64,000 nucleotides of DNA. Source: a virus. Under the pieces are notes generated by a model. The model had not been told where the DNA came from. It worked only from the letters and a program-made list of their open reading frames with translations, and searched no databases. The DNA lies in the IMG/VR virus record IMGVR_UViG_3300042691_046823. One strand, 5' to 3'. The translations under genes were made by a program, and so were the position numbers. Every line of letters starts with the position of its first letter. Position 1 is the stretch's first letter. Positions 37,641-47,869 of this stretch are shown one piece after another.

Positions 37641-37882
37641 GCCGCGTAGCAACGGCTACTCTGACCCAGAGGATGAAGTGGTGTAGCAGCCACGGGTGGT
37701 TCCAGTCCGACCTAACTGGCGTTGGCAATACGACAACGGACCCTGCCGAGGAGCGGAGGCTTATCACTGTCTTAGATGTGCCTGCTGAGGGACTGCGATG
37801 TCGATGGACAGAGCAGGTAGCAAACCAACCAGGACGCAGTGGAGTGTAAAACACCGCCGGGGGTCGTCAGAGCAGTTTTTTT
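37641..37882 (+). ncRNA. unclassified structured RNA (about 240 nt)
   Basis: intergenic; closing helix CTCTGAC/GTCAGAG, many nested hairpins, T-run end. Confidence 0.55.
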
Positions 37883-43497: not shown

Positions 43498-43581
43498 GGA
43501 GAAGAAGCATCAATGGTGATGCACTGGACTGTAAATCCGGCGCCTCGGGCACGACTGGTTCGATCCCAGTATTCTCCACCA
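43498..43581 (+). tRNA. tRNA-Tyr (GUA)
   Basis: CTGTAAA loop, long variable arm, CCA. Confidence 0.92.
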
Positions 43582-44537: not shown

Positions 44538-44566
44538 TTGACACACATATCAAGATATAGTATAAT
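44538..44566 (+). promoter_or_regulatory. consensus sigma70 promoter
   Basis: TTGACA-N17-TATAAT. Confidence 0.88.
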
Positions 44567-44595
44567 TACTTGTCGTCACTATCAAGGAAAAAAAC

Positions 44596-44832
44596 ATGGC
44601 AAGGATCACCAGCGAAGAAGCCAGTGCGGCTGTAGGCAGTCATTATGATCTCGTGCTCATAGCCAGTCGGCGTGTGCGCGAATTGAGAAATGGATATGCT
44701 CCTGAGATCACCGATGTACACAGAAGTGAAATCGTGACTGCATTGAGAGAGATTGAGCAGGAAAAAATCGGCAGAGATTATCTACTAAAAAATCCCGAAA
44801 TCCAACGCGACACCAAAAGGAAAGCCAAATGA
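44596..44832 (+). CDS. rpoZ: RNA polymerase omega subunit homolog
   Basis: MARIT.E, YDLVLIASRRVREL, VTALREIE. Confidence 0.85.
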   Translation: MARITSEEASAAVGSHYDLVLIASRRVRELRNGYAPEITDVHRSEIVTALREIEQEKIGRDYLLKNPEIQRDTKRKAK

Positions 44833-44990
44833 AAAAACCTGGATCAAATTACAAGATGAGCAAGGCCGGCAAGATCAGTCTTGCGGTGAACTGGAATCGT
44901 CCGCACAAGTCCGCACGTCGTCGAGGAATAGTGCAGGCCGAGTTGTACGGTTCAGAAGTGATCAAAAGCAAACGAGAAAACCAAAAGTAG
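44829..44990 (+). CDS. small basic protein (53 aa)
   Basis: ATGA coupling to rpoZ. Confidence 0.55.
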   Translation: MKKPGSNYKMSKAGKISLAVNWNRPHKSARRRGIVQAELYGSEVIKSKRENQK

Positions 44991-44999
44991 ATACGGTTC

Positions 45000-45073
45000 G
45001 CCCCTTTAGTTAAATGGTATAACAGTTGATTTGTAATCATCAATTGGCAGTTCGATTCTGTCAAGGGGCACCA
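45000..45073 (+). tRNA. tRNA-Thr (UGU)
   Basis: GCCCCTT/AAGGGGC acceptor, TTTGTAA loop, CCA. Confidence 0.9.
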
Positions 45074-45421
45074 TGCATGAGCCGGTGAGAGAAAGCAGGC
45101 TCGCCACCATCTCAACTGTGAGAGAATGTACCACCCTGGACTTCTGTAGCCGTGATAGGCCATGCTCCGTGGCTGGAGATAAACATGTCTCAGGGGATCT
45201 GCACGCCGTCTGGAAAACGGCTTGAGCTGAGCGATCAGTGTGAAGATCTTAAACACAGCACAGTCGGTTCATGCATGGATCAAGGGCAATGCTTTAGCAG
45301 TCGTCGGGCAGGACCAATTTGGCAAAATGCCCGGGCCACTTGCCCCCATGGTTTCAACGACATGGACCATCAGCGATACAAGGAAGACAAACTAACCGCG
45401 TCACTCGCTGCCATGTTTTTT
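45074..45421 (+). ncRNA. unclassified large structured RNA directly after tRNA-Thr
   Basis: long closing helix 45074-84/45265-75, multibranch interior with GCGA tetraloop, second domain to T-run. Confidence 0.6.
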
Positions 45422-45446
45422 ATCATTTGTCATATATACGCAGATA

Positions 45447-45884
45447 ATGTTAAGAATAATCACAGACATCGCCGATCCATTGTTGGACTTCCTCAAGGAT
45501 GATCCGGTGCGGCCAGAAATCCCACGTGAGTTCCGTGTGACTGAACATCGATTTGTGGCAGCCTTGGTCGACGGAAAACCTCGAGCCATGGTCTGTGTCA
45601 GCCTCCGAGATAATGTACCCGCGGGAGTAAGCGATCTCCATGGTGATTGCAATAATCCTACTACTGCGGTATTTTATACCATATGGAGTTATGTTTCTGG
45701 TGCCGCATCTGAATTGCTTTTTGACACAGTGCAGGCTATACAAGAACAGTTTCCCACCGTGACGAGATTCGTTACCCTAAGTCCAAAAACTGACATGGCT
45801 TACAAGTTCCATATACGCAATGGTGCCCATGTGTTGAGAGAAAACACAGACACTGTCAATTATGAATACGTGATAGGAGGATGA
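45447..45884 (+). CDS. hypothetical protein, possible GNAT fold
   Basis: DDPVRP, FYTIWSY, TLSP, FHIRNGA. Confidence 0.65.
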   Translation: MLRIITDIADPLLDFLKDDPVRPEIPREFRVTEHRFVAALVDGKPRAMVCVSLRDNVPAGVSDLHGDCNNPTTAVFYTIWSYVSGAASELLFDTVQAIQEQFPTVTRFVTLSPKTDMAYKFHIRNGAHVLRENTDTVNYEYVIGG

Positions 45885-47330: not shown

Positions 47331-47489
47331 ATGAAATTATGGGAAGCCACTGTGAGAGATCCCGGACCCGGAACACAAGAACGTACCGTGCGCATAGGGG
47401 CCGAAACTGCCGAAGAAGCCCGGCACCGATTGCAGGAGTTGTATGGACCAAGATCGATTCCCTATCTGCCTCGACTGGTTCCGCAATAA
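47331..47489 (+). CDS. small hypothetical protein (52 aa)
   Basis: MKLWEATVR...LYGPRSIPYLPR; TAAATA upstream. Confidence 0.5.
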   Translation: MKLWEATVRDPGPGTQERTVRIGAETAEEARHRLQELYGPRSIPYLPRLVPQ

Positions 47490-47506
47490 GTAGTACAGTA
47501 GTGATA

Positions 47507-47830
47507 TTGTTGTATGAAGCAAGCCGAAAAATGTGCAAGACGCGGGGGCAGCACCCGCCGGCTCCACCAAGAGAGGATTTGACATGGAACTATATACCGA
47601 ACGCGATTGGCAACGTATCGTAGGCTGGGGTATGTGTCCAGAACATCTCAAGATCAAGTCTTCTGTTGATGGGGCCGAACCAGGATCGATTGTGCAAAGA
47701 GTAAGTGAGCAGACAACACGAGAGTCGACTGACGTAATCAGCGAAAAACCATAAACGCCAACGACGACGTTTACGCATTGGCCGCTTGACGGCTTGCTGA
47801 GGTAGGACATACCAAGAAACAGAAAACACC
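47507..47830 (+). ncRNA. ssrA: two-piece circularly permuted tmRNA
   Basis: acceptor piece ends CGGCTCCACCA (47569) upstream of coding piece GGGGCCG (47671); G3-U70; tag ANDDVYALAA* at 47757-47789; outer boundaries approximate. Confidence 0.9.
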
Positions 47831-47852
47831 AGCCCGCCTTGGCGGGCTTTTT
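47831..47852 (+). terminator. intrinsic terminator after tmRNA
   Basis: AGCCCGCC/GGCGGGCT plus T-run. Confidence 0.85.
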
Positions 47853-47869
47853 CAGCAAATTATCACAAC

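Follow-up and report, generated by a model that had tools for sequence, protein, structure and literature searches.

The non-coding DNA directly behind a tRNA-Thr gene of a large phage genome almost certainly encodes a real, conserved RNA with a double-pseudoknot fold, judging from the changes seen among its homologs. The gene for this core RNA lies at 45071-45278 of the 64,000-nt stretch of DNA that was analyzed (the window) and, in a 34-member alignment, is closed by a 14-bp helix, P1 (45071-84 with 45265-78). It belongs to a family that is uncatalogued, in that it is absent from Rfam, and that is carried by many uncultured phages. At this locus, where the features given from 44538 to 45421 are all on the plus strand, a perfect sigma70-type promoter (44538-44566; 12/12 consensus match) is followed by an rpoZ-like gene for RNA polymerase omega (44596-44832; PF01192, E 4.5e-11), a 53-codon ORF and tRNA-Thr(UGU) (45000-45073; ARAGORN and Rfam), whose CCA (45071-73) provides the first three bases of P1. 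The promoter would drive rpoZ, the small ORF, the tRNA-Thr and the RNAs as a single transcript, with a possible end at a T6 run (45416-45421) that was seen in the sequence and was not called as a terminator in a promoter/terminator scan. The window carries a tRNA cluster, and a tRNA-like gene at 43498-43578 (Rfam, 37 bits; missed by ARAGORN) was noted between tRNA-Met and tRNA-Asp. A permuted two-piece tmRNA of the betaproteobacterial type, at 47457-47854 in the window and also found near several core RNA members, points to a betaproteobacterial host.

The first two homologs came from loci fetched with the tRNA-Thr sequence, and neither sits behind tRNA-Thr. Motif scans and two covariance models then yielded 34 distinct full members in phage and metagenome contigs, which are 44-76% identical to the window and have a mean pairwise identity of 52%; an additional member of 147 nt was found later. 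Since the members were retrieved partly by their motifs, the conservation of those motifs is partly inflated; no search pattern included the strands of P1 or the partner strands of the pseudoknots. A pattern confined to the 5′ half served as an independent check: it gave 30 viral matches, and all 23 new ones carried the 3′ half and scored as members (53-122 bits). Loose sequence patterns taken from the window had found chance matches only, and the loci of the downstream MCD-like gene contained just one truncated copy. Counted from GUG to where pseudoknot B ends, the core measures 118-195 nt, the shortest members being ~140 nt, and each genome has one copy. Carrier contigs include some of 316-345 kb rated 91-99% complete, and the RNA is accessory, because a complete 357-kb relative lacks it. 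Most members sit in or near tRNA arrays, but many are nonetheless far from any tRNA. One GC-rich member (L371:2165-2347), from a small phage, is antisense and flanked by lysis-region genes, and no tRNA is close to it.

As the preliminary description had supposed, the element matches no known family: Rfam 15 gave no match over it at E<=10 in the window and seven homolog loci, or at E<=3 in 12 further homolog loci. Four members compared by BLAST with 50,697 records of cultured phages likewise gave no match. An exact 5′-half pattern, which diverged bacterial members could escape, had five matches in GTDB genomes, none of them a full member. A match in a Mesorhizobium genome (L381:2571-2661) has only the 5′ motif and a P3-like hairpin, scores 10 bits and appears to be either chance or a decayed relic. 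The literature searched with the family motifs held nothing relevant, and published candidate lists in supplements could still include the family.

Single-sequence folding is weak evidence here (z of -2.2 for 45074-45275, -0.2 for 45280-45421 and -1.5 over the full length, a modest gain over shuffles), so that homologs were needed to decide the fold. Covariation among homologs, which had been named earlier as a check, bears the RNA out and, on our reading of the alignment, proves the fold of the core: double changes occur in 43 of the 51 proposed pairs, and 89.7% of alignment cells are paired, as compared with 71% in shuffled and 38-47% in slid controls. G.U wobbles outnumber A.C mismatches 30 to 3, which argues that this strand is under selection as RNA. 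In nearly all members P1 runs as an unbroken helix, with 94-98% of its cells paired and double changes at all 14 pairs. The overlapping ORF at 45152-45502 was rightly called spurious, since it shows in-frame stops and frameshifts in the nearest homologs and has no Pfam match; homolog length differences across it are not multiples of three. That the locus is a small mobile DNA element, with terminal inverted repeats that merely resemble a helix, is scarcely credible: the near-perfect 12-18-bp terminal repeats, the changing neighbors and the patchy presence (as in the 357-kb relative) would fit, but the repeat sequences differ among members, there is one copy per genome, the internal pseudoknots covary, and the excess of G.U over A.C is that of an RNA.

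The alignment describes a five-way junction made up of AG(A/C)GAAAG, P2, P3, the P4 domain (with P5 and P6), a variable P7, and UUAAA. The 5′ strand of P1b, GUG (paired with CAC at 45254-56), and the AG(A/C)GAAAG segment occupy 45085-45095, and their conservation is partly inflated by the motif searches; the single-stranded UUAAA (45249-45253) is near-invariant even in members found by the 5′-half pattern or a covariance model. P2 is a hairpin (45098-45108) whose GCCA loop (45103-06) kisses UGGC at 45170-73 to form pseudoknot A, with the compensated variants AGCA/UGCU, GUCA/UGAC, GGA/UCC, GGC/GCC and GGCC/GGCC beside GCCA/UGGC; these partners were picked by eye, which makes the shuffle test for pseudoknot A circular, and its p-value was not used. 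P3 is a hairpin (45110-45125) with an 8-nt loop in which ACUGUG (45115-20) pairs with CACAGU (45259-64), a segment that directly adjoins the 3′ strand of P1. This second interaction, pseudoknot B, is supported by covariation: 198 of 198 pairs are kept in 33 members, and 15 distinct combinations score 90/90, where the shuffle maximum is 83. The P4 domain (45134-45195) consists of P4 (45134-38 with 45191-95), P4b (45145-47 with 45183-85), P5 (45149-60) and P6 (45165-78); P4 is 90% paired in the MAFFT alignment and the inner helices of the domain 67-79%. The P7 domain (45196-45248; P7 itself pairs 45196-200 with 45244-48) bears the variable hairpins P8 (45205-21) and P9 (45227-38) and is a single hairpin in short members.

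Much of this architecture had been anticipated. The pairing of 45074-84 with 45265-75 and its extension over the CCA (45071-73 with 45276-78) are seen in the sequence as first described, and the interior helices listed at that time also hold, although the kissing-loop pseudoknot between 45103-06 and 45170-73 had been missed. The pairing of ACTGTG with CACAGT likewise stands, but not as a nested helix: ACTGTG is the loop of a TCTC/GAGA hairpin (45110-13 with 45122-25), and the pairing forms a pseudoknot beside P1.

The P2-P6 kiss could in principle form between molecules, giving an RNA-only multimer that resembles the cages of ROOL and GOLLD. Some covarying ROOL contacts that were first read as tertiary proved to be intermolecular (PMC12286853), and here the loop-loop pairing of 3-6 bp covaries and is the self-complementary GGCC in one member. 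Covariation, however, is blind to whether a pairing is intra- or intermolecular, most of the loop pairs are not palindromic, and the RNA is far smaller than GOLLD; we consider a multimer decidedly improbable.

Several known classes were considered and rejected. In bacterial RNase P RNA, helix P4 forms between the GGAAAGUC and GGCUUA regions; in our alignment GAAAG and CUUAAA form no covarying helix, and there is no Rfam match. For domains 1 and 5 of group II introns, RNase P and 6S RNA, and equally for twister, pistol and the glycine and cobalamin riboswitches, the covarying pairs specify another topology, and no match came from Rfam. The theta and HDV ribozymes have a nested double pseudoknot with a catalytic C in J4/2 (PMC10879173), whereas covariation gives a five-way junction closed by P1.

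The 3′ part of the locus is not a second domain of a single ~350-nt RNA, as had been proposed; the region divides into three units (45071-45278, 45274-45350 and 45361-45415), of which the last two are copies of a separate module of 55-81 nt, with the CATGG/CCATG stems pairing within each copy. In the alignment of copies, module A (45274-45350) has a 5-bp stem, a 5-nt bulge, a 6-bp stem, a 1x3 loop and a variable cap, and its first five bases (45274-78) are shared with the 3′ strand of P1; module B (45361-45415) is the second copy of the same small family. The 17 distinct copies are 100% paired, with double changes at 7 of 13 pairs. Solitary copies occur in L343 and L345, and distant core RNA members are found without small modules. 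A CATATATA box at 45431-45438 has a single occurrence in the window, and a box resembling it sits 5-8 nt upstream of the second module copy in relatives; it may be a phage promoter element. We also observed a conserved stem-loop sequence between a small module and tRNA-Met (L334:1710-1880, and in L332, L278 and L119). A second GC-rich structured non-coding stretch in the window, at 37641-37882, is not a member of the core RNA family; it has a homolog, since its 5′ part is closely similar to sequence behind tRNA-Tyr in L315.

Fusion to tRNA-Thr, a feature emphasized in the preliminary description, is not a family trait. Just 5 of 33 members abut a tRNA CCA, the tRNA 3′ end lying 11-12 nt before GUG, and four different tRNAs are involved (Thr, Asn twice, Tyr and Gly). 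Of ~119 other fetched loci whose tRNA-Thr is near-identical, none carries the element immediately after that gene; the seven nearest homologs of the window lack a tRNA at the corresponding place, and the well-supported branches require that the tRNA-abutting arrangement arose at least twice. In the five abutting members P1 pairs the CCA, which forms its conserved start. Two other recurring non-coding sequences lie directly behind tRNA-Thr in related phages (L212, L301 and L306; L210 and L309).

The exact abutment in these five members, the compact double pseudoknot and the near-invariant, purine-rich junction bases are what a new class of ribozyme might show, either cutting itself off the tRNA in the manner of theta or acting on another RNA. 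Yet most members do not abut a tRNA, and where they do, a perfect helix encloses the CCA junction, which is 11-12 bp away from the conserved core. The topology is not HDV-like (PMC10879173) and no Rfam ribozyme matches. In addition, unrelated cargos share the signature of the stem described below, and an RNase III signature offers a simpler route of release. A ribozyme thus seems unlikely.

P1 probably is handled by host RNase III, as the base composition of the stem suggests. The E. coli enzyme reads two 4-bp proximal boxes that are twofold symmetric around the cuts, and a G-C pair at box position 2 blocks its binding (PMC1540722, PMC3867540). The boxes are placed two pairs apart (PMC6212723), so that their position-2 pairs lie seven apart, as observed in P1: A-U is found at -12 from GUG in 30 of 32 members and, seven pairs further, at -5 in 30 of 33. 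G/C never occurs at -12 and seldom at -5, compared with 49% elsewhere in P1, and U-A is kept at -11 although the sequence of P1 is variable. Of 25 distinct P1 strands, 17 have AU-NNNN-RAR in a single common register, where shuffles give 0.24. P1 thereby presents symmetric proximal boxes with A-U/U-A at position 2, and in the window the symmetric box (CAU-NNN-N-RAR, 45072-45081) predicts cuts at 45077^45078 and 45273^45274. No phage-encoded RNase III was found in four near-complete carriers, so that the enzyme would be that of the host.

P1 would thus be a processing stem for host RNase III. The cut at 45077^45078 would free tRNA-Thr with a 4-nt trailer for exonuclease trimming, and that at 45273^45274 would free a core of ~196 nt and give module A its exact 5′ end. 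The earlier idea of a novel ncRNA released by tRNA processing is borne out as to a novel, non-coding, covarying RNA, and its release is plausible. P1 resembles established RNase III processing stems (PMC1540722, PMC3867540, PMC6212723) in its two proximal boxes, which are separated by two pairs and have A-U at position 2, and differs from them in that it is short, begins within the tRNA CCA and may need pseudoknot stacking, the cuts themselves being predicted. Its 14 bp fall below the ideal substrate of 22 bp. Beyond the cut, a substrate should offer 11 bp of helix or more, together with a distal box. From the predicted cut to the junction there are 7 bp of P1, plus a possible coaxial pseudoknot B helix of 6 bp, and because only 7 bp lie past the cut, the 11-bp minimum helix would need coaxial stacking on pseudoknot B. 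The P1 of the window also has G-C at position 4 of the outer box, which is a catalytic antideterminant, and G-C in place of A-U at position 3 of the inner box.

In another reading, P1 is bound but cut slowly or not at all and masks the CCA, gating tRNA maturation until the RNA refolds, with module A competing for the 3′ strand of P1. G-C at box position 4, which permits binding by E. coli RNase III without cleavage, is present in 14 of 33 members, all five abutting members pair the CCA, and 45274-78 is common to P1 and module A. However, that overlap is equally expected from a cut at 45273^45274, the P1 signature is kept also in members with no adjacent tRNA, and we saw no sign of a ligand-dependent switch. 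We regard such a gate as distinctly improbable, on a par with the multimer.

The signature extends beyond the family. The fetched loci contain 1131 distinct CCA-ending tRNAs; long stems that hold other cargo come after 36 of them, and 30 of these 36 CCA-anchored stems carry the signature, in contrast to 36 of 1089 stemless tRNA ends (a background of 3%); the stems are possibly related by descent, and the 30 do not count as independent events. CCA-anchored stems are, on this pattern, possibly a general RNase III cassette in phage tRNA arrays. We note that CCA-pairing stems of 11-19 bp with AU-NNNN-RAR enclose cargo of 31-223 nt, for example in L330, L298, L303, L311 and L261. At L332:1314-1446 the cargo ends in a tRNA-like T-arm and the 3′ strand of its stem overlaps the P1 5′ strand of the next family member; similar chaining is seen in L333, L334, L278, L315 and L391.

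Once released, the core, a compact five-way junction held by two pseudoknots, would offer a rigid scaffold or a decoy to some host factor that works in translation or RNA surveillance. Its independence from neighbors, its single copy and its invariant junction bases would suit an RNA that acts in trans and presents a fixed three-dimensional surface, and a role in trans is supported by the members far from tRNA, the one in a lysis cassette and the single copy per genome. Whether the released core has a non-catalytic binding role, which we infer, could go either way, and this is the weakest step; for the reading as a whole, that of an RNase III-released, stable, trans-acting phage RNA with a binding role, we lean somewhat in favor. 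We rank binding or a decoy role first, followed by a new ribozyme, a CCA-masking gate and an RNA-only multimer, whereas the 6S-like and mobile-DNA readings are poorly supported.

The 6S-like reading, a regulator of RNA polymerase that works with the phage rpoZ, draws on the position of rpoZ, which in 14 of 33 member loci lies within 3.5 kb of the core RNA and in several of them immediately precedes it. The gene is a neighbor in one subgroup only, though, with no rpoZ seen beside the other 19 members; a multibranch double pseudoknot is not a rod with a central bubble, Rfam gave no 6S match, and we judge this reading very improbable. A Y-RNA role is without support, as no Ro60/TROVE gene was found in the four near-complete carriers. 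A weak match to YrlA, a Y-RNA-like family (L242:263-373; 40.7 bits, below the family cut-off), lies in the same tRNA array as one member.

Among known RNAs, the raiA motif (RF03072; PMC12968392) comes nearest in size and build: it too has ~200 nt, a closing P1 beside a multi-stem core, a linker of GAA(A) type that follows the inner segment of P1, two pseudoknots and optional peripheral stems, with function unknown in both. In raiA, however, the partner of the P3 (P3b) loop is the loop that joins P5 to P6, conserved GU and GGU bulges interrupt P1, and the distribution is mainly in genomes of Bacillota and Actinomycetota (PMC12968392). In the phage core the P3 loop has its partner in the strand adjoining P1, the other knot is the P2-P6 kiss, P1 is a near-perfect helix, and the RNA was found only in phage-type contigs. 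RF03072 had no Rfam match at the window or the homolog loci, and a separate raiA check, run without a positive control, was negative as well. GOLLD and ROOL are likewise phage-borne RNAs near tRNA islands, with pseudoknots, kissing loops and unknown function, but GOLLD often exceeds 800 nt (PMC12286853) and the core RNA is much smaller; neither family had an Rfam match in the window or 19 homolog loci. Theta ribozymes are minimal HDV folds whose cleavage site is the tRNA end; they too are double-pseudoknotted RNAs directly behind a phage tRNA 3′ end (PMC10879173), whereas the core RNA is larger, has a terminal helix that closes it and in most members has no tRNA next to it.

The species 1 and 2 RNAs of T4 (rnaC and rnaD) and the stable RNAs of T5 are comparable in being stable products of phage tRNA clusters with unknown function and a size near that of the shortest core members; they contain no core RNA family motifs. 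Together with a 144-nt element of Felix O1, they gave stem-only matches of at most 20 bits over both strands, compared with 29-136 bits for members scored with the same covariance model. In the Felix O1 element (L392:707-854), GGG-UGAAAG facing UUUAAA-CCC recalls GUG-AGMGAAAG and UUAAA-CAC of the core RNA, and the two possibly share a small motif, although the covariance model does not score Felix O1 as a member.

Structured RNAs of ~200 nt with two pseudoknots and invariant junctions are, to our knowledge, rare, and those known are ribozymes, riboswitches or puzzles such as raiA. The present family was found in uncultured phages only, is accessory and has a proposed function that we infer; it offers a fold proven by covariation together with natural minimal versions (~140 nt). 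There is some chance, though not a large one, that the core represents a new class of RNA, catalytic or ligand-binding, and that, in addition, large aquatic phages use a general cassette of CCA-started RNase III stems. If the cassette is real, one cut would both mature the tRNA and release the cargo RNA. The P1 signature suggests how phages may slot cargo RNAs into their tRNA arrays using host enzymes only, a question that has long been open for the stable RNAs of T4 and T5.
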